Sequence record: NC_031934.1
Reading direction: 5' to 3' (one strand)
Source: Escherichia phage MX01
Length of the DNA: 64,000 nucleotides
Shown here in pieces: positions 1-64,000 of the stretch. Positions within the stretch are counted from its first letter, which is position 1. Every line of letters starts with the position of its first letter. The notes beneath the pieces are model-generated. The model was given only the letters and a program-made list of their open reading frames with translations, was not told where the DNA came from and ran no database searches. A program made the position numbers and the translations under genes.

Positions 1-380
1 AGGTGGCGTTGAGCTTCAGCAACACCGGCACGGTCGAATTCGTCGATAACAATTACCTTACGCTTACCTTCGATAGATTTAGAAGATGCAAAACGAGTAA
101 GTTCATTACGAACGAAATCAATACGGCAGTCAGAACCGTTAACAAACAGCATGTCTGAATTTGTATCAGCACACAATGCTTTAGCTACGGTAGTTTTGCC
201 TGTGCCTGGTGAAGCAGAGACTAGGATAATGTTAGGGATTAGACCCTTATTAACAATGGCTTGGAGGGTTTCTTTATCATGTGCAGGCAGAATACACTCA
301 GATAAAGTACCTGGACGATATTTCTGTTCCCACATGAAGTCATTTTCATTAATAGTTAAACCATTTACCACTTTACTCAT
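1..380 (-). CDS. 44: clamp loader large subunit gp44 (partial; 3' end outside window)
   Basis: Minus-strand translation from ATG at 380 gives MSKVVNGL...ILVSASPGTGKTTVAKAL... with Walker A and VIVIDEFDR Walker B; RBS GAGGA upstream; T4 synteny next to gene 45. Confidence 0.85.
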   Translation of the reverse strand, partial: MSKVVNGLTINENDFMWEQKYRPGTLSECILPAHDKETLQAIVNKGLIPNIILVSASPGTGKTTVAKALCADTNSDMLFVNGSDCRIDFVRNELTRFASSKSIEGKRKVIVIDEFDRAGVAEAQRH

Positions 381-939
381 TATTATTTTCCTCATTAAAA
401 TGTTTAACAATTTTATTCAATTCGTTTGCAGAATAATTATATCCATAATTTTGTAAAAGCGTACTAAATCTACCCTTTTTAGGCATACCAAGTTCTATCC
501 AAATCTTACGGAGCTCTTCATAATTCTGCCATATTTCAGAGCGTTGCCATTTAGAGCAATTAAGCTTATGGCTTTCGGAAAATGTTCTTGATTTTCCGGT
601 CCTGGTGATAGACATCTTACGTTTAGATTCAGCACTGTGGAAATCTACACCACCTGGACCACCGGGAGCTTTATTAACACAACGTGAACCATACTTGGCA
701 ATACCTTCTTTAACAAGGGCCTCTTCAATAAGTTTGGCTTCTTTAAATGTATCCGTTTTGTGGACAACCTCAATACTAAACTCCCAAACACCAGGAGTTA
801 TAGCATTTTCTCGCTTGCATTTCTTAACAAATTTACCAGTACCATAATATTCTTCAGGAGTAACACGGTGCCTACCGAAATAATGGTAGACATCCTTAGT
901 TTTGGTATTTGTTATTGTATTATGATAGCAAATGTACAT
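373..939 (-). CDS. putative GIY-YIG-family homing endonuclease (seg-like), NUMOD3-like DNA-binding motif
   Basis: 188 aa; VYHYFGRH...YYGTG resembles GIY...YIG core; ESKRKMSITRTGKSR NUMOD3-like; paralogous to ORF 60888..61514; inserted between genes 45 and 44; start overlaps gp45 stop (TAATG). Confidence 0.4.
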   Translation of the reverse strand: MYICYHNTITNTKTKDVYHYFGRHRVTPEEYYGTGKFVKKCKRENAITPGVWEFSIEVVHKTDTFKEAKLIEEALVKEGIAKYGSRCVNKAPGGPGGVDFHSAESKRKMSITRTGKSRTFSESHKLNCSKWQRSEIWQNYEELRKIWIELGMPKKGRFSTLLQNYGYNYSANELNKIVKHFNEENNNE

Positions 940-1637
940 TAGAACGAGTGGCTTGAGCCTGCTTCCATAGCTAGTACGTAAGAAGCTTGTGAACCTTCAA
1001 ACTTAGCTGCGAAACGAGCATCTTGACCTTCACCGCGTGCCCATAACAATACATGGTAATCAGCCGGCATCATTTTCATATTAGTTTTGTTAATAATGAA
1101 TTTGAATTCAGGGCCATCATGGTCTGCAACCACTAAGGAATACAACGGTCGAGTCAATTCTTTATCGTCAACTTGTTTATAACCGTTGATAACGATTTTA
1201 CCATTGTCTGTAGTGATTGCAAATGTATCAATACTCAATCCAGAGGATACACGCATCAGTTGCTGGTAGTCTTCAGCTTTAAGGTCAAAAATAACTTCAG
1301 CGACCGGGAATGGAATCTTTTTGCTTGGGAATGCAATTGTGCTTGGGTCGGCAATAGGCCACTTAATAGTTGAACGTTGGTCTTTAATAATTAAAGTGGT
1401 TTGGTCTTCACTTACCGAAACTTCAGCACTTTCAGATACCAAAGACAGAATACTTAAGAAACCGTTCAGGTCATAGATTGCGGCTTCGATATCAAAGGTA
1501 TCGGATACGGTAGCTTCACCATAACTTGCACCTGTTACAGAACGAGTTAGAATAGTGTTACCAGGTTTAAGCATGATACCTGGATTAATACCGGAGAAGT
1601 TTTTCAGAATGTTCAGAGTTTCTTTAGAGAATTTCAT
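939..1637 (-). CDS. 45: sliding clamp gp45
   Basis: 232 aa, collinear similarity to T4 gp45 (…IYDLNGFL…KFEG…); RBS AAGGA. Confidence 0.9.
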   Translation of the reverse strand: MKFSKETLNILKNFSGINPGIMLKPGNTILTRSVTGASYGEATVSDTFDIEAAIYDLNGFLSILSLVSESAEVSVSEDQTTLIIKDQRSTIKWPIADPSTIAFPSKKIPFPVAEVIFDLKAEDYQQLMRVSSGLSIDTFAITTDNGKIVINGYKQVDDKELTRPLYSLVVADHDGPEFKFIINKTNMKMMPADYHVLLWARGEGQDARFAAKFEGSQASYVLAMEAGSSHSF

Positions 1638-2333: not shown

Positions 2334-2376
2334 ATAAATATCTTTATCGGTCGCTGTATCAAATAAGGATTTGATA

Positions 2377-3093
2377 ATGAATTATAAATCAATATACGAA
2401 AAGCTTATTCAACGAGCAGTTAATAGAAATTTAACTACCTATAAAGAACGTCATCACATTATACCACAATGCATGGGTGGAACGGACGACGCTTTAAACT
2501 TGGTAGACTTAACACCTGAAGAACATTACTTGGCTCATCAGTTGTTAGTTAAAATCCATCCAGATAATGCATCGTTAGTCTATGCGGCAAGAATGATGAC
2601 AGTTAGCTCACCAAAAGCTGATAGGTCTAAAAATAAATTATTTGGATGGCTTCGTCGTAAGAATTCAGAAGCCCAAAAGGATAAAGAATTCTCGGAAGAA
2701 ACCAGAAAGAAAATGTCAATTTCCGCTTTAAAAAAGCCTAGAGTTACCTGTCCACACTGCGGTAAAACTGGATTGGTAGGCAATATGAACAGATGGCATT
2801 TCGATAACTGCCCTAAAGGCCCTAATAAAGTAGACCGCTCTATATCTGAAGAGCAAAAATTAAAAATAAAGAAAGGCCTAGAAAACATGGTCCATAAAAT
2901 TGTGGAATGTGAATTCTGTGGCCTTTCAGGAAAATCCTGTGTTATTGCCTCTCATAAAGTTTTTTGTAAGAAAAATCCTAACGGGCGCAAAAAAACAGAA
3001 AAGAAGGTAGAATGCCCTCATTGTGGTAAACAAGGGAATTCCGGTAATATGAATCGTTGGCATTTCGATAACTGTAAAATGAAGCCTCAATAA
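2377..3093 (+). CDS. HNH homing endonuclease (mob-like) with NUMOD3 motif and two Cys4 zinc-ribbon repeats
   Basis: ERHHIIPQCMGGTDDALNLVDLTPEEHYLAH HNH motif; FSEETRKKMS NUMOD3; duplicated CPHCGK...NMNRWHFDNC; RBS AAGGA 6 nt upstream of ATG 2377; opposite strand to all neighbours. Confidence 0.8.
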   Translation: MNYKSIYEKLIQRAVNRNLTTYKERHHIIPQCMGGTDDALNLVDLTPEEHYLAHQLLVKIHPDNASLVYAARMMTVSSPKADRSKNKLFGWLRRKNSEAQKDKEFSEETRKKMSISALKKPRVTCPHCGKTGLVGNMNRWHFDNCPKGPNKVDRSISEEQKLKIKKGLENMVHKIVECEFCGLSGKSCVIASHKVFCKKNPNGRKKTEKKVECPHCGKQGNSGNMNRWHFDNCKMKPQ

Positions 3094-3098
3094 GAGGC

Positions 3099-4781
3099 TT
3101 ATTCCATAATTGTAAATCGACCAACCTTTTTCATTTGTAAATGCTGACCATATGCTTGAGGGTCATGGTCCCTGTGGCTGATTATAAAAACATTACTGTC
3201 TTCAAGACTATTAAGAATACTTGCAATCGACTTAACAGCCTCAGCGTCAACTGCTCCATCAAAAACTTCATCCAACACTAATGTACTAATGTGGACTCCA
3301 CTGACTTTTTCAGCAATATCACGCCAGGTAAAAAGTAGTGCGATATCAATACGTGCTTTCTCACCCTGTGAAAATGAAGCATAACTAAAGTCTTCACGTC
3401 CACGTGATTTAATCGTCTCATTGAACTCTTCGTCTAGTGTAAAGACGTAGTCGGCTTCCATAATCTTCAAATAAGAATTTATCTGCTTATTAAAGATAGG
3501 AATGTATTTCTTAATAATGGAACCTTTAATACCGGTATCCTTCAACATTTCTGTCAGAATTCCACGATGGTATTTTTCCATTACCAGGGACGATTTGGTA
3601 GAGACGATTTTATCAAGCTCTGCTTGAAGCGTGGCAATCTCTTCGGCATTACTTACGAACTCAGCAGCGGCTTGGTCTATTAATACTTTAACTTTTTTAG
3701 CTTTCTCTACGGCAGTAATGGCTTGTTGCTTATGAGTAGCTATCTGAGATTTAATAGCCAGCGCTTTATTACGTTGTTCGGTTACTTGGTCCTTAATGAG
3801 CTTGAGTTCTTGGTACTGCTCATTAATCTTATCCAAAGATTTTTGAAGTTCAAAGTTCTTGTCCTTAATTTTAGTAAGGATATTTCCATGCTCTTCTAAT
3901 CCTTGCATACACGTAGGACAACTACCACCGGTTTCGTATAATTTCACGACCTTAGTAAAGGTTGCCATATCATTCTTGATTGCAAACCCTTTATTACTCA
4001 GGTCACTCATAGAGTCGCTAGGGTCATCATCGACAATGACATTGAGTAATTCATCAGTTAGTTTTTCTATATTGCCTTTCGCAGTCCTGGCTTCTTTAAC
4101 GAGCTCGTCATACATTACTTGTAGTCGTGCTGCGTTCTCGCCGGATAATTTACGTTGACGTTCTTCGTTGTCATTATAAATTTTAATCTGTTGGGTAATA
4201 GAATCCTGTTTAACGTCGATTACTTGGATTTGGCTATTAGTCTCACGAATCAAAGATTTGTTCAACTTATCCATATCCGCTAATACAGAAACCTCTAAGA
4301 GGTCTTCGACAAGTTTTCTTCTTGCAGGAGTGGATAGGCCCATAAAAGGGGTATATCCAGCTGTCCCGAGTACGACAATCTGTTTGAAGCTTGTGTAGGA
4401 CATTCCGATAAGCTGTTCAAATTCCGCTTGGAAGTCTTTACTGCTGGCAGATTCATCAAGACGTTCACCGTCACAAGAGATTTCAAAAACGTTGGGTTTT
4501 TGCCCGCGTTTGATGTAGTATTCTTTGCCATCATATTCCATCCACAGTTCGACCAAAAGGTCTTTCTTATTACTTGAGTTAATCAACTGCCCTTTCTTAA
4601 CATCGCGAAAAGGCTTACCAAACAGAGCAAATGTTACGGCTTCAAGGAATGTTGATTTCCCTGCACCATTTTTACCAGTGACTAAGGTCTTTTGGACCTT
4701 ATCAAGTTGGATTGTAATAGGTTGCTGGCCTACCGACATAATATTTTTATACGTTACTTTCTTTAACTTAAAAGTCTTCAT
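3099..4781 (-). CDS. 46: recombination endonuclease subunit gp46 (SbcC/Rad50-like ATPase)
   Basis: Start at MKTFKLKK; Walker A GKNGAGKST, signature SQGEKARIDIALLF, Walker B LVLDEVFDG; length ~560 aa. Confidence 0.9.
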   Translation of the reverse strand: MKTFKLKKVTYKNIMSVGQQPITIQLDKVQKTLVTGKNGAGKSTFLEAVTFALFGKPFRDVKKGQLINSSNKKDLLVELWMEYDGKEYYIKRGQKPNVFEISCDGERLDESASSKDFQAEFEQLIGMSYTSFKQIVVLGTAGYTPFMGLSTPARRKLVEDLLEVSVLADMDKLNKSLIRETNSQIQVIDVKQDSITQQIKIYNDNEERQRKLSGENAARLQVMYDELVKEARTAKGNIEKLTDELLNVIVDDDPSDSMSDLSNKGFAIKNDMATFTKVVKLYETGGSCPTCMQGLEEHGNILTKIKDKNFELQKSLDKINEQYQELKLIKDQVTEQRNKALAIKSQIATHKQQAITAVEKAKKVKVLIDQAAAEFVSNAEEIATLQAELDKIVSTKSSLVMEKYHRGILTEMLKDTGIKGSIIKKYIPIFNKQINSYLKIMEADYVFTLDEEFNETIKSRGREDFSYASFSQGEKARIDIALLFTWRDIAEKVSGVHISTLVLDEVFDGAVDAEAVKSIASILNSLEDSNVFIISHRDHDPQAYGQHLQMKKVGRFTIME

Positions 4782-57732: not shown

Positions 57733-59895
57733 ATGATTAACAAATTGGAACTTAGTGAGTTACCATTTGTTGACGGCGTACCTGATGCTCCTCAAAAGCG
57801 TATCCAATGGATACGCGAGGGTGATTGTATGTCTGCAGCAAAAACAAAATACGGCAATGAAGGTAATTTGAACGCTGCTGCTTTAGGAGTTCAGAAAAAC
57901 GTTGAAGCTCTTGATGCGAATGATTTGAAAACCGCAGATAAAGTTAACGAACTGGTAGAAAACGTTAATAATATCAATGATGCCTTAGAAATGGCTACGG
58001 ATATTTCCGTCATCCAACAAATTGAGAAAAACCGTGTTGATATCGTAGAGCTTAAGAGAGTAGAAGGCGAAACCACTACTGGGCTAAACAATTTAACCAT
58101 AAATTTAGACCACCTAAAAGAAGACGTTGGTTACCATGACCCTTTACAAGACGGCCCATATTTAACTTTACGTGAAAATATTGTTCTTCTTAAAACCGAA
58201 ATAGGTCATTATGAAAACCAGGATATAAATGGCAATCCATTGCCTCCTGGTGAAACCAGCGAAGCCACTGGTATGAAACGTCGCATCATTGATAATACCA
58301 CTCAATTGGTCGACCATCGTCTTCGCATTGATACCCTTGAAAGGAATTATGAAGATTCTGACGTCGGGCAACTAGGTATTAAATTAAATGAAATTCGTGC
58401 TGAATTAGGTCCTCATTCCGATACGGTAGGTAAACAACAGGCTTATACCCGAATTTCTGTATTAGAAACGGCTGCAATTAATTTTAATACATCTATCGAC
58501 GAAATTAAGGCTGATATTGATTTCTCCGGTATGCCTATAAAGGACCGAGTAACTACTTTAGAAAGCAAAACTCTTACCCTAGAAAATTCAGTCAACGTTG
58601 ATTTAAAACCTCGTGTAACATCAATTGAAACCCAAATAGGTTCTGAATCAACTCCTACTTCTATTAATGGACGTTTAAGCGGTCTTCGTACTGATGTAAA
58701 TGACCTTAAAACCATAGTAGGTGTTAGTTCAAGTGATGGCTTACGTTTCCAAGTTACTGATATCAACCGCCGTTTAGGTAGTGAAGTATCTCCGGCAGCC
58801 GGGACCATTAATAAGCGTTTAAATGACGTTATTATCCAAGCAAACCAATCTACTTCATCTATCCAGGATATTCAAGTAGAAATTGGAAATAACCAATCTG
58901 GTATTAAGGGTACTTTACTTAAACTCACCAATAAGGTTGATGGGACAAACCCTAACGGTGCTACTGTAGAAGAACGTGGTCTTATTAATGCGGTTACTTC
59001 TTTAGAAACCCAGATGTTAGGTAAGTTGAATGAGGCCCCTTCCGATGGTAAGCTTTATGCTCGTCGTAATGCTACATGGACCGAAGTTATTAATAACTCT
59101 ACTGAGATAGAATCTGTTAAAGCCGATTTGGTTGTTACCGACGGTAAAGTAACGGCCCTGACTTCTAGAGTTGACACTAACGATACCTCAATTTCTTCTC
59201 TTGATACACGTACCGGAGCTTTAAACACTTCGGTTGGTGAGATTAAAGCAGATATCGTTACTATAAAGGCTAAAGACCTTGAACAGGACGGTCGTTTAAC
59301 AGCACTTGAATCTAGTGATGTTACTGTTAATGGAAAAATATCGGCACTTGAATCTAAAACCGATACCACCGATTCTGATGTTACCGCTTTGGCCTTAGAT
59401 GTGAGTTCTATAGAATCACAATTAATTCCTATTAAAGCTGATATAACTAAGAACAAAGGCGATATAGTTACTTTAACCGGACGAGTAGCTGCTAATGAAG
59501 GTGAAATTGCCGATATTAAATTAGACACCGCTAAAATAGCTCCTTTGGCTACTCGAGTCACTACTGCTGAAGGTAAAATTACCACCTTAGAAACAGGTTT
59601 AGCTGCTGTTAAAGTTGAATCCGATAAAGTTGCAGGAATCAATACCCGTTTAGGTACGGTAGAAGGTAAAGTTGGTACTCTTGAAACAGGTTTAGCAGCG
59701 GTTAAAGTTGAATCTGATAAAGTTGCTGATTTAGGAACCCGTTTAACTGCGGCTGAAGGTAAAATCACTGCACTAGAAACTGAGTTGGCCAAACGCCCTC
59801 CTGTTGCTCCTGTAGCTGATGGGCTTCCGTATGTTCTTGTTGATAATGCATGGGTATTATTGTCCGATTTTGTGACTTTAAACTCAGCGCCATAA
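57733..59895 (+). CDS. wac: fibritin (neck whiskers), extended 720-aa form
   Basis: Long coiled-coil repeats and C-terminal foldon-like GLPYVLVDNAWVLLSDFV. Confidence 0.8.
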   Translation: MINKLELSELPFVDGVPDAPQKRIQWIREGDCMSAAKTKYGNEGNLNAAALGVQKNVEALDANDLKTADKVNELVENVNNINDALEMATDISVIQQIEKNRVDIVELKRVEGETTTGLNNLTINLDHLKEDVGYHDPLQDGPYLTLRENIVLLKTEIGHYENQDINGNPLPPGETSEATGMKRRIIDNTTQLVDHRLRIDTLERNYEDSDVGQLGIKLNEIRAELGPHSDTVGKQQAYTRISVLETAAINFNTSIDEIKADIDFSGMPIKDRVTTLESKTLTLENSVNVDLKPRVTSIETQIGSESTPTSINGRLSGLRTDVNDLKTIVGVSSSDGLRFQVTDINRRLGSEVSPAAGTINKRLNDVIIQANQSTSSIQDIQVEIGNNQSGIKGTLLKLTNKVDGTNPNGATVEERGLINAVTSLETQMLGKLNEAPSDGKLYARRNATWTEVINNSTEIESVKADLVVTDGKVTALTSRVDTNDTSISSLDTRTGALNTSVGEIKADIVTIKAKDLEQDGRLTALESSDVTVNGKISALESKTDTTDSDVTALALDVSSIESQLIPIKADITKNKGDIVTLTGRVAANEGEIADIKLDTAKIAPLATRVTTAEGKITTLETGLAAVKVESDKVAGINTRLGTVEGKVGTLETGLAAVKVESDKVADLGTRLTAAEGKITALETELAKRPPVAPVADGLPYVLVDNAWVLLSDFVTLNSAP
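59569..59790 (+). repeat. 93-bp tandem repeat (about 2.4 copies) inside fibritin coiled coil
   Basis: Near-identical units starting gaaggtaaaattaccacc / gaaggtaaagttggtact, encoding KI(V)TTLETGLAAVKVESDKVA... Confidence 0.7.
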
Positions 59896-59896
59896 T

Positions 59897-59928
59897 AAAA
59901 GGGCTTCGGCCCTTTTTTGCTATAAATA
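59897..59928 (+). promoter_or_regulatory. terminator hairpin (AAAAGGGCTTCGGCCCTTTTTT) followed by late promoter TATAAATA
   Basis: Hairpin 59897..59918, TATAAATA 59921..59928, gp13 ATG at 59950. Confidence 0.6.
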
Positions 59929-59949
59929 CGGTTATTAGAGGAATAAACC

Positions 59950-60885
59950 ATGGCAAGTGAATCATATAACCCTAAGCAACTCAAGGACGCAATCCTGCGC
60001 CGCCTGGGTGCACCGATTACAAATATTGAAGTAACTACAGACCAAGTATACGATTGCATCCAGCGCGCCCTGGAGCTCTACGGTGAATATCATTATAACG
60101 GCTATAACAAAGGTTATCAGGCTTTTTATATAGGCCATGATGACGAAGAAAAATTCCGTAACGGCGTATTTGACCTTAAAGGCCGTAATATATTTGCGGT
60201 AACACAAATTTTGAGAACCAACGTAGGTTCTTTAACATCTATGGATGGCCAAGCGACTTATCCGTGGTTTACTGATTTTGTATTAGGCTTGGCCGGTATT
60301 AATGGTGGTCTTGGAACTTCTTGTAACAGCTTTGGGCCTAATGCCTTTGGTGCTGACCTTGGGTATTTTACACAATTAATGCAATATCGTTCTATGATGC
60401 AGGACCTTTTGGTTCCATTGCCTGATTATTGGTATAACGATGCTACTGAACAGTTGAAGGTAATGGGTAACTTTGTTAAAGGCGATTTTATTGTAATTGA
60501 AGTTTATACTCGCTCTTTTAATGGGGTCGATTCTATGGTAGGAAATACCGCAGGATATGGATACGCCTCTGGTGGGTGCGACGAAAATGAATGGAGCCCC
60601 GGAGCTATTTGGGATAACCCGGCTCGTCGTATTTCAGGTATGAGGGCAGGTGAAGACCTTGGTTTGCAAGATGGTTCATATAATAACCGTTGGGTCAAAG
60701 ATTATGCGACGGCATTGGTTAAAGAAGTCAATGGTAATATTTTGGCCAAACACCAAGGCATGCAACTTGCGGGTGGAACCACTGTAGATGGTATTCGATT
60801 GATTGAAGAAGCTCGTTTAGAAAAAGAACGCCTTCGCGAAGAATTAGATTTACTCGACCCACCAACACCTATTTTAATTGGATAA
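59950..60885 (+). CDS. 13: neck protein gp13
   Basis: 311 aa; [13 protein letters not shown]...[17 protein letters not shown]. Confidence 0.85.
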
Positions 60886-60887
60886 TT

Positions 60888-61514
60888 ATGTTTTATAGAT
60901 TATACGTGACTGAGTTTGAAACGTCGGACGGATTAAAAATTTATGGCGGTAAAAGACATTCGGATAAATCTAATCCAAAGCTGGATTCATACGTTGGCTC
61001 AGGAACGTATATTTCGAATGCTAAGAAAAAATATGGACGAAACTGTATAAAACAGGTATTATGGTCGAAAGATTTCGGTAATCCGGAATTATTAAAGGAA
61101 GCCGAAGAACTTTTAGTCGATATTCTTAAAGAAGATTTTGCTCAGTGTGTTAATTTGGTAAAAGGAGGACAAGGTGGTCCTTCTTATTACAATCCTAAAG
61201 ATAACCCTAATATAGGTAAAACCCGTTCTATAGAATCAAGAAAAAGAATGTCAGAGGCGGCAAAATCAAGAGAATGGACTGAAGAAGGGCTAAAGCGTAG
61301 AAAAGAATCTACCGCATTAATGTGGACGCGTGTGAAACACCCAGATTTTACCGGTAGTAAAAATCCTGCGGCCAGAGCAGTTAGAGTCGGAGAAATGGTA
61401 TTCTCGACAGGTAAAGAATGCGCCGAGTATTTTGGTATAGTCAAAAGCGCAGTTATTAATAGAATAAAGAATGATAAACCTAAATGGAAGGAGTGGAGTT
61501 ATGTCGACATTTGA
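60888..61514 (+). CDS. GIY-YIG-family homing endonuclease (seg-like) with NUMOD3 and C-terminal HTH-like motif
   Basis: KIYGGKRH...YVGSG core; [19 protein letters not shown]3; paralog of 373..939; inserted between genes 13 and 14. Confidence 0.6.
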
Positions 61515-62274
61515 TTCTAGTCTTTTCGCCAAACTAGAAAATAATACAGGTTACGCTAATACGAACGAAGCCGAAATTCTCAATCCCTTTGTCAACTTCT
61601 ACAAGCATGAGAATACCCAAACATTGGCTGATGCTTTAGTTGCTGAGTCTATTCAAATGCGTGGTATTGAGCTTTATTATATACCACGTGAATACGTTAA
61701 TCCAGACCAGCTATTTGGCGAAGACCTTCAGAACAAATTTACTAAAGCCTGGAAATTTGCAGGTTATTTGGATTCCTTTGAAGGTTATTCCGGTGACAAT
61801 ACTTATTTCAGTAAGTTCGGTATGATGGTTAATGATGAAGTAACAATCACAATTAACCCTAACCTTTTTAAACATCAATGCAATGGCACTGAACCTGTTT
61901 CAGGTGATTTGATTTATTTCCCAATGGACAACAGCCTATTCGAAATTAACTGGGTACAACCTTACGACCCGTTCTATCAAGTGGGTGCTAACGTCCAGCG
62001 TCGAATCACTGCTACCAAGTTCATTTACAATGGTGAAGAACTTCGTCCTGAATTACAGAGAAATGAAGGTATTAATATTCCTGAGTTTAGTGAGCTTGAT
62101 TTAATGCCTGTTAAGAATATCGACGGATTGGCTGATATCTCCGACATTCAATACGAAGAGGTCAATGAGATTAACGCCGAAGCGGCTGAATTCGTACATC
62201 CTTATGTTGTAATTAATGGACGAGGAGAGGATGCTCCTCCTACAGCATTTGATGATGCTTTTTTAGATGATTAA
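61501..62274 (+). CDS. 14: neck protein gp14
   Basis: Start set at MSTFDSS (ATG 61501); synteny. Confidence 0.8.
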
Positions 62275-62281
62275 ATAATAC

Positions 62282-62304
62282 ATGGCGCATGGTGCGCCAT
62301 TTTG
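62282..62304 (+). terminator. terminator hairpin after gene 14
   Basis: ATGGCGCA-tgg-TGCGCCAT followed by TTTT. Confidence 0.5.
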
Positions 62305-62363
62305 AGAGGTGATTTATTTTTGGCCACTGGTACAATTCATCGCTGCGTCGCTATATTGTTTTG

Positions 62364-63178
62364 ATGGGTGATTTATTTTCCCATGTCCAAGTAGCGCGTC
62401 AAAGAGAAGATACAGGACTTAAATTTATTAAGGTCCCTATTACGTATGCTTCTAAAGAAAGATTTATGGCAAATTTGGGTAAATGGACGGCCGTTCAAAA
62501 TATTCCAAATCCTAATATGTCTCCTAAAGAACGAGCTGAACAAAAGGCTAAAGTGGAAACAGTTCTTCCACGTATGAACCTTCAAATGGTTGATATGCTT
62601 TATAACTCACAATACAAAACAGCTCTTCAGAACAGAACACAAATTCAATTTGAGAATGGTGACCCGAGAAAACGAGTCAGCCAATATTCTCCTACTCCGG
62701 TTAAAATGATTTTCGAACTGGGTATTTACACTAGAACCCAAGATGATATGTTCCAAATTGTGGAACAGATTATGCCTTATTTCCAACCTCACTTTAATAC
62801 AACAATCACCGAACTCTATACAAACGAGATTAAATTTGACCGTGATATTCGTATTGTGTTCCAGTCTATTGCAATGGACGAACAATTGGAAGGTGATACC
62901 ACTTCTCGTCGTCGCTTAGAATGGTCTATGATGTTTGAGGTTAACGGATGGTTATATCCTCCTGTGAAGGAAATGGAAGGCGAAATTAAAACCATTTATC
63001 TTGATTTCTTTGCTAATTCAAAGGAACTCGCTCCTGAAGGTAATTTCGAATCGGTTGATAGCGAAGTGGTTCCGAGAGGTGTAGAACAAACAGAATGGGA
63101 TGGAAGTTCCGTTCAAACATATTCACAAGATATTCCAGTGCCTGTCGAGCCAGCGCCTCCAGCACCAAGGAGAAACCC

Positions 63179-63182
<4 letters not shown>
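62364..63182 (+). CDS. 15: tail sheath stabiliser / completion protein gp15
   Basis: MGDLFSHVQ...[15 protein letters not shown]...; in-frame upstream codons also look gp15-like but lack an ATG. Confidence 0.8.

Positions 63183-64000
<818 letters not shown>

Follow-up and report, generated by a model that had tools for sequence, protein, structure and literature searches.

The neck genes 13 and 14 of Escherichia phage MX01 are separated by an open reading frame (ORF) coding for 208 amino acids. What this ORF encodes, how it came to lie there and how the essential gene behind it is still expressed are the questions raised by the locus. The window analysed here, 64,000 nt of MX01 DNA (record NC_031934.1), belongs to a T-even phage of the genus Dhakavirus, and the flanks of the ORF are 97% identical to phages LHE83 and Bp7. 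The initial annotation, made from the sequence alone, had located the ORF at 60888-61514 with its 3' end overlapping the start of gp14; it was found exactly there, on the plus strand and with an ATG start. As the gp14 ATG is at 61501 and the stop codon of the ORF at 61512-61514, the two genes share 14 nt. We consider it highly probable that the ORF, hereafter seg, encodes a free-standing Seg-type GIY-YIG homing endonuclease, carried as a cassette at the start of gene 14 and moving by intronless homing into seg-less relatives. The features concerned are listed below.

59921..59928, plus strand: T4-type late-promoter motif TATAAATA, about 22 nt 5' of gene 13
59950..60885, plus strand: gene 13, neck / head-tail adaptor Ad2 (phrog_211, E 7e-41)
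60888..61514, plus strand: seg-type homing endonuclease gene, 208 aa, ATG start (PHROG 314 and comparisons)
60888..61172, plus strand: GIY-YIG nuclease domain, aa 1-95 (topology and conserved residues)
61173..61331, plus strand: flexible linker, aa 96-112 (pLDDT ~61-63), then two helices including NUMOD3, aa 104-122
61353..61502, plus strand: I-TevI-type helix-turn-helix DNA-binding domain, aa 156-205
61488..61498, plus strand: putative replacement Shine-Dalgarno of gene 14, AAGGAGTGGAG, as read from the sequence
61501..62274, plus strand: gene 14, neck / head closure Hc2 (Pfam T4_neck-protein, E 8e-107)
61501..61590, plus strand: recoded 5' tract of gene 14 (comparison with the empty-site allele)
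373..939, minus strand: second Seg-like GIY-YIG ORF, 188 aa, at the gp45/gp44 junction

The gene wac lies further 5' of gene 13, and gene 15, 3' of gene 14, starts at 62361.

The 208-aa protein matches the 'homing endonuclease' family PHROG 314 (E 9e-33), and the three domains originally proposed for it were all recovered. NUMOD3 (PF07460) covers aa 104-122 with 20.8 bits against a cutoff of 20.4. The C-terminal helix-turn-helix-like region corresponds to the I-TevI-type DNA-binding region at aa 156-205 (E 3e-5, just under the Pfam cutoff); the score of I-TevI_DNA-bd, like that of TIGR01453, stays below the curated cutoff. The GIY-YIG-like core is recognized by PHROG 314, by profile and structure comparison and by similarity to T4 SegF, without a direct Pfam match: neither PF01541 nor PF19835 matched the ORF at E<=1. 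Among 62 aligned relatives, 17 match Pfam SegE_GIY-YIG and 10 match GIY-YIG, a transitive link only. Since the fold result is positive, the absent Pfam match reflects a limit of sensitivity and not absence of the domain.

An AlphaFold2 model built on the family alignment (mean pLDDT 91) comprises a strand-strand-helix-strand-helix arrangement at aa 1-95, the linker at aa 96-112, two helices and a strand-strand-HTH-strand module. Its N-terminal part is a three-stranded antiparallel sheet flanked by helices, the fold of the I-TevI catalytic domain, and its C-terminal helix-turn-helix is of the I-TevI type; the best Foldseek match of the model is the I-TevI DNA-binding domain. When the family profile was compared with the whole PDB at E<=1, only I-TevI chains were returned; a search of PDB sequences with the single sequence gave no match, the profile being required. 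A zinc finger between the linker and the minor-groove helix is absent, as C178 is the sole cysteine in aa 96-208. A word-indexed search of 5.8 billion proteins yielded 15 relatives only, and an exhaustive profile search 7,370 at E<=1e-3 and merely 3 at E<=1e-30. The homologues thus appear as a small clade within a large modular superfamily.

In I-TevI, E75 is the metal-binding glutamate, N90 the structural asparagine and R27 the catalytic arginine. The conserved set is complete in the MX01 protein (Y6, Y19, G21, R23/H24, Y35-G37-S38-G39, E73, N89 and G93-G94), with Y19, G21, E73 and N89 invariant in 62 of 62 sequences and Y6 in the 14 close homologues. The profile alignment places R4-L5-Y6 opposite I-TevI G4-I5-Y6 and I18-Y19-G20-G21 opposite Y17-V18-G19, so that Y6, Y19, G21, E73 and N89 face I-TevI Y6, Y17, G19, E75 and N90. 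The I-TevI catalytic R27 falls opposite N29; R23 and H24, nearly invariant right after Y-G-G, may substitute for it. All six T4 Seg proteins are also devoid of an arginine aligned to R27 and carry Y-x-G-x-H, and five of these six are listed as active in a review table (PMC2988022). The suspicion that catalytic residues could be missing from such an alignment is not borne out, because the five residues named above pair with their I-TevI counterparts; the core looks as intact as that of the active-listed T4 Segs.

From T4, free-standing Seg endonucleases are textbook knowledge, as are intronless homing and co-conversion. To judge from its alignments, the MX01 ORF is a Seg-type GIY-YIG protein and represents a familiar kind of element, not a new one. 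It is 40% identical to T4 SegF over aa 2-97 (E 2e-16), 33% to SegD (8e-10), 33% to SegC (3e-8), 31% to SegB (7e-8), 40% to SegA over 65 aa (1e-6) and 33% to SegE (5e-6), the SegA-E alignments being partial. Seg-specific motifs (Y-x-G-S-G, K-Y-G, G-G-x-G-G) align between the MX01 ORF and the T4 Segs. Compared with all six, SegF has the closest nuclease domain among characterised enzymes, with F-Y-R-x-Y, Y-x-G-K-H-x-S, Y-x-G-S-G, K-Y-G, E, C-x-N and P/K-G-G-Q-G-G in common. Its gene lies between 56 and soc, targets gene 56, is promoter-less and overlaps the upstream gene; its inheritance brings co-conversion of flanking markers (PMC2988022). SegF differs in its C-terminal half, which is unrelated to that of the MX01 protein (similarity ends at ~aa 100), and in insertion site and target gene; in the review it is drawn as a GIY-YIG/HNH hybrid (PMC2988022). 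For MX01, unlike SegF, the recombination boundaries point to a cut no more than ~90 nt from the site of insertion.

In the PDB, the MX01 enzyme finds its best counterparts, by structure and by profile, in both domains of I-TevI. I-TevI is encoded by the group I intron of T4 td, and its structures comprise the catalytic domain (PDB 1ln0/1mk0) and the DNA-binding domain (1i3j/1t2t). The two enzymes have a common plan: GIY-YIG N-terminus, flexible linker, NUMOD3-type helix and C-terminal helix-turn-helix. I-TevI is intron-encoded whereas the MX01 enzyme is free-standing, and identity amounts to ~16-18% only; the MX01 enzyme lacks the zinc finger and an arginine at R27 and is shorter (208 aa).

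The 13/14 junction was said to be normally tight, and it is: the spacer measures 2 nt in the seg-less Dhakaviruses Bp7 and KIT01 and 1 nt in T4. The comparison with insert-less relatives that had been suggested to define a target site revealed the empty 13/14 site in Bp7 and KIT01, where the junction reads ...ATTGGATAATT-ATG-GCTACTTTC..., that is gp13 stop, 2 nt and gp14 ATG. The empty site is GGATAATTATG-gp14, and the seg ATG takes the place of the gp14 ATG; in MX01 it stands 2 nt past the gp13 stop, with gp14 pushed 613 nt downstream. The closest relatives align to the flanks only (76% query coverage), and Bp7 and LHE83, 97% identical, carry no seg; seg-free junctions are present in Bp7, KIT01, LHE83 and about 45 other Dhakavirus records. 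As gp13 and gp14 are separate and intact genes, no intron is involved and seg is free-standing. This arrangement shows the insertion of a 613-nt promoter-less cassette exactly at the start codon of gene 14. In Mosigvirus, where mogra (L005 1492-1506) was compared with a20 (L015 893-907), seg opens with M-A-T-Y-Y-R and gp14 with M-A-T-Y-D-K. The Mosigvirus seg copies the first four codons of gp14, whereas MX01 seg and gp14 have only the ATG in common; the left recombination junction of mogra therefore lies inside the first ~12 nt of gp14.

The insertion is accompanied by a sharply bounded change in gene 14. Aligned with seg-less Bp7, MX01 shows no mismatch over the final ~300 nt of gene 13, 21 mismatches over nt 1-90 of gene 14 and again none over the following 245 nt; with 1.7% as the background rate, such a density has P = 3e-18. 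Compared with the empty-site allele, which is common to dozens of seg-less Dhakaviruses in its unrecoded form, 14 codons are changed synonymously and 3 non-synonymously. Nucleotides 1-14 of this tract are the 3' codons of seg itself; without this overlap, 17 substitutions in 76 nt are left (P = 9e-15). The rest is best described as a co-conversion tract and is a probable region of target-site immunity. In MX01, the left crossover falls within ~25 nt 5' of the ATG and the right one between nt 90 and 123 of gene 14.

The same combination was found in other backbones. A metagenomic Dhakavirus-like contig, L010, is identical to MX01 at 618 of 627 nt of seg and 89 of 90 nt of the tract, in a backbone diverged by 5-13% (gp13 3' end 87% identical, downstream gp14 91-95%); even here, divergence from Bp7 is 2-4 times higher in the tract than in the remainder of gene 14. 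Phage vB_EcoM_005, the only database phage with an identical seg, is 100% identical to MX01 in both seg and tract. In three genomes the tract accompanies seg, and seg plus the 90-nt tract are 98.6-100% alike between backbones differing by 5-13%; hence one cassette was transplanted between backbones. These comparisons clearly indicate that seg moved between phages together with the recoded start of gene 14, and the transfer with flanking co-conversion expected of homing is seen here as a comparative footprint only. As donors of the tract, the seg-carrying mogra, SP18, Phi1, KpCCP1 and L009 were rejected, their identity to it (46-66%) being lower than that of the empty-site Bp7 allele (76%); no sequenced seg-carrying phage of another genus matched the tract as donor.

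A search with the tract alone brought up PSD2002 (L014, OK335775; 1501-1590), a Dhakavirus which is seg-less and has an empty junction. Its gene 14 carries the unrecoded allele in nt 1-32 and all 13 tract substitutions of nt 33-90. Such an allele would be the expected product of a break in the 5' part of gene 14 repaired without copying of seg, or else of a crossover that took place in the tract afterwards, and PSD2002 is a candidate for a stage of the homing cycle with an empty, partly immune site. A corresponding tract exists in a second genus: seg-carrying mogra and seg-less a20 differ by 16 substitutions in gene 14 nt 4-48 (P = 1e-16) and are essentially alike over the 100 nt that follow; seg is inserted at the same ATG here as well.

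Orthologues of seg at 13/14 (at least 54% aa identity) occur in about 40 phage records of Dhakavirus, Mosigvirus, Gaprivervirus, Krischvirus and Slopekvirus. Those at 54-62% include mogra_108 (Mosigvirus), SP18 gp176 (Gaprivervirus, 'segC'), KpCCP1 (Slopekvirus), F2, VR26 and others; phi1p149.1 of the Krischvirus Phi1, also labelled 'segC' and located at 13/14, is only 32% identical to the MX01 ORF. Apart from Phi1, they have the same domain plan, and most overlap the gp14 start with their 3' end. Their distribution is sporadic, most relatives of the carriers being without the gene, as one would expect of a homing endonuclease gene. The GenBank labels 'segC' and 'homing endonuclease' were given by similarity only, and 'segC' is a misnomer, because the true T4 segC sits between 5.1 and 5.3; the published table of T4 homing endonucleases has no entry at 13/14 (PMC2988022). 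The exact MX01 protein is annotated merely as 'hypothetical protein' in NC_055783 (vB_EcoM_005), and literature searches for a described or characterised 13/14 endonuclease returned nothing specific. The clade is uncharacterised but already annotated, and the MX01 ORF is a new member of it.

The Dhakavirus vB_EcoM_FB (L004, MT682711) has an HNH (mob-like) nuclease gene at the same 13/14 site (1489-2133). It starts at the gp14-type ATG and overlaps gp14 as MX01 seg does. Its NUMOD3 and I-TevI-type DNA-binding half is homologous to that of MX01 (30% over 106 aa, E 2e-12), whereas its nuclease domain is HNH (phrog_655, E 1e-48) and that of MX01 GIY-YIG. This looks like a swap of nuclease domains on a related recognition module, and suggests that two nuclease chemistries use related modules at one site. 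Another mob-like HNH gene, absent from MX01, lies between 14 and 15 in KIT01 (L003, 2272-2859) and vB_EcoM_005 (L001, 4335-4922). With several homing endonuclease genes, the neck-gene cluster is a hotspot for such elements.

With seg in place, gene 14 has lost its original start. The seg ATG occupies the original position of the gp14 ATG, and seg therefore inherits the translation-initiation region of gp14. The sequence AAGGAGTGGAG lies 7 nt ahead of the displaced gp14 ATG, inside the seg codons for the conserved C-terminal motif K-W-K-E-W (K-W-K-E-W-S-Y); a Shine-Dalgarno within the 3' end of the endonuclease gene is likewise present in FB, mogra and L009. The 3' end of seg probably supplies a new Shine-Dalgarno and start context for gene 14, by which, we propose, this essential gene would still be expressed. 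The recurrent Ala2Ser change in gp14 of seg carriers stems from the overlapping coding, seg Y-V-D-I-stop being M-S-T in the gp14 frame. The T4-type late-promoter motif has 8 matches in the whole window and none in 59929-64000; as no other lies near the locus, TATAAATA at 59921-59928 presumably drives a late 13-seg-14 transcript. Scans for sigma-70-like sites and terminators in and around seg did not rise above chance. A hairpin sequestering the ribosome-binding site, as known for I-TevI and mobE, was not found at the seg start (MFE -8.3 kcal/mol, z +1.4). MX01 seg resembles T4 segC, segF and segG, which are promoter-less cassettes overlapping their neighbours (PMC2988022).

The homing endonuclease reading of the initial annotation is upheld by the PHROG 314 match, the fold, the SegF similarity, the precise insertion and the transfer of seg with the tract, from which we infer nuclease activity. 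The element would work as follows. Seg would be transcribed, probably late, from the promoter 5' of gene 13 within the 13-14 transcript, and translated from the original ribosome-binding context of gene 14, with coupling to the gene 13 terminus. When a seg-less relative infects the same cell, its empty 13/14 junction would be bound by the C-terminal NUMOD3/HTH module, and the GIY-YIG domain tethered to this module would cleave the DNA a short distance away; the first ~30-90 nt of gene 14 are the most likely place. The cut is placed there by recombination boundaries only, since gene 13 has no donor markers and gene 14 is co-converted for 90 nt. Recombination-dependent repair off the seg-carrying genome would then copy seg and adjacent donor sequence into the recipient. 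We propose that the recoding of the first 90 nt, which is mostly synonymous, shields the gene 14 of the carrier; the tract could also be pure co-conversion from a distant donor, without a role in immunity.

It is unlikely that seg is a decaying or domesticated gene that no longer cuts and is kept mainly as the carrier of the ribosome-binding site of gene 14. Such a gene would account for a 3' end that holds the Shine-Dalgarno and overlaps the start of an essential gene, and embedded expression signals are known to favour retention of seg genes (PMC2988022); the ORF also has neither a direct Pfam GIY-YIG match nor an arginine opposite I-TevI R27. However, active-listed T4 Segs (PMC2988022) are likewise without the aligned arginine, and the MX01 ORF is full length with all family-invariant residues kept. 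Across the clade, dN/dS is 0.13-0.23 (dS saturated for distant pairs) over the whole ORF and not its 3' end alone, which by this measure shows the protein to be under purifying selection. Near-identical copies in backbones 5-13% apart mean recent transfer, and the precise empty site in most relatives means that the gene is not fixed by necessity.

A slightly less probable alternative grants an active nuclease, selected for the benefit of the phage: it would exclude or degrade competitors, or promote recombination or amplification near neck and packaging genes. Marker exclusion mediated by Seg proteins is established for T4 against T2 (PMC2988022), the abstract of a 2026 paper reports that SegB aids immune evasion via segmental amplification (PMC13096335), and the element is kept in five genera. 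Its biochemistry would be that of the homing endonuclease, the difference lying only in what is selected; yet no cargo or defence target is indicated at the locus, and the sporadic presence of seg, in 1-2 of about 45 Dhakavirus and 13 of about 197 Mosigvirus-type records, is more in keeping with a selfish element than with a gene of wide benefit. That the tract has nothing to do with homing, and reflects either a local hotspot of mutation or recombination or a side effect of overlapping coding, is very improbable: overlap with the C-terminal codons of seg explains its first 14 nt, but not the substitutions beyond them (17 in 76 nt), nor the linkage to seg in three genomes, its recurrence at the same place in a second genus and the unrecoded allele in dozens of seg-less Dhakaviruses.

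The preferred reading, a selfish homing endonuclease, may be carried one step further, tentatively and with the balance tipping slightly against the proposal. This Seg clade might be more like an intron-encoded enzyme than like SegF/SegG: it would recognise and cut the first ~30-90 nt of gene 14 beside its insertion point and gain immunity through dense synonymous recoding and the overlap of seg and gene 14 codons, and at 13/14 GIY-YIG and HNH chemistries (the latter in FB) would compete through a shared recognition module. If so, sequenced phages would display all stages, as a natural allelic series of sensitive empty sites, occupied sites and seg-less sites that are partly recoded and partly immune. 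The target prediction is precise and can be tested: it covers Bp7-type DNA between the gp13 stop and approximately nt 90 of gene 14. The conceptual gain is small, the 13/14 orthologues already being labelled homing endonucleases in GenBank; the element is ordinary in kind and unusually well documented by natural variants. The comparisons account for a mosaic stretch in an essential neck gene, which might otherwise lead phylogenies or recombination analyses of therapeutic Dhakavirus and Mosigvirus phages astray, and the apparent natural GIY-YIG/HNH swap of FB on a related DNA-binding scaffold could interest engineers of modular nucleases.

Seg had further been called a paralog of an ORF between genes 45 and 44. 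At its left end the window encodes, on the minus strand, gp45 (939..1637; 58.5% identity with T4 gp45) and the N-terminal part of gp44 (ATG at ~380; 69% identity with T4 gp44). The 188-aa ORF at 373..939 (minus strand) is constructed like the 13/14 element: it overlaps the gp45 stop by 1 nt and the gp44 ATG by 8 nt, and the GAGG Shine-Dalgarno of gp44 lies within its last codons. The corresponding T4 junction consists of a 50-nt spacer only. The ORF matches PHROG 314 (E 9e-16) and the family HMM (E 5e-16), and is 22-24% identical to the 13/14 enzyme (pairwise E 3e-7), with a different C-terminal half. A tblastn search of the 13/14 ORF against the whole window (E<1) found no paralog, the 45/44 ORF being seen only by pairwise BLAST and the family HMM. 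Thus the same broad Seg-like family is present at 45/44, and the statement that one family occupies two conserved junctions holds at that level; with only 22-24% identity, the pair is not a recent duplication. Scanning all ORFs of the window with the family HMM returned exactly two Seg-like genes and, besides these, an HNH ORF whose similarity is limited to the NUMOD-like region. The plus-strand gene at 2371-3093, which lies between gene 46 and the ORFs on the gene 45 side and runs opposite to these neighbours, codes for a 240-aa HNH mob-like homing endonuclease with repeated zinc-ribbon motifs (phrog_655, E 5e-69). The late-promoter motif TATAAATA occurs just 5' of this gene, at 2333-2340.

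Two minor observations concern the flanks of seg. In vB_EcoM_005 (L001, NC_055783), a net 14-nt insertion at ~3715-3735, just past the recoded tract, frameshifts gene 14; in the annotation gp13 and gp14 appear as fragments, and genome length is 155 kb as against about 170 kb in relatives, all of which are probably assembly or sequencing errors, not biology. The fibritin gene wac of MX01 (57733-59895, plus strand) codes for 720 aa, compared with 487 aa in T4 (1,464-nt gene, stop included), with extra coiled-coil repeats toward the C-terminus; wac is also long in L010 and vB_EcoM_005.
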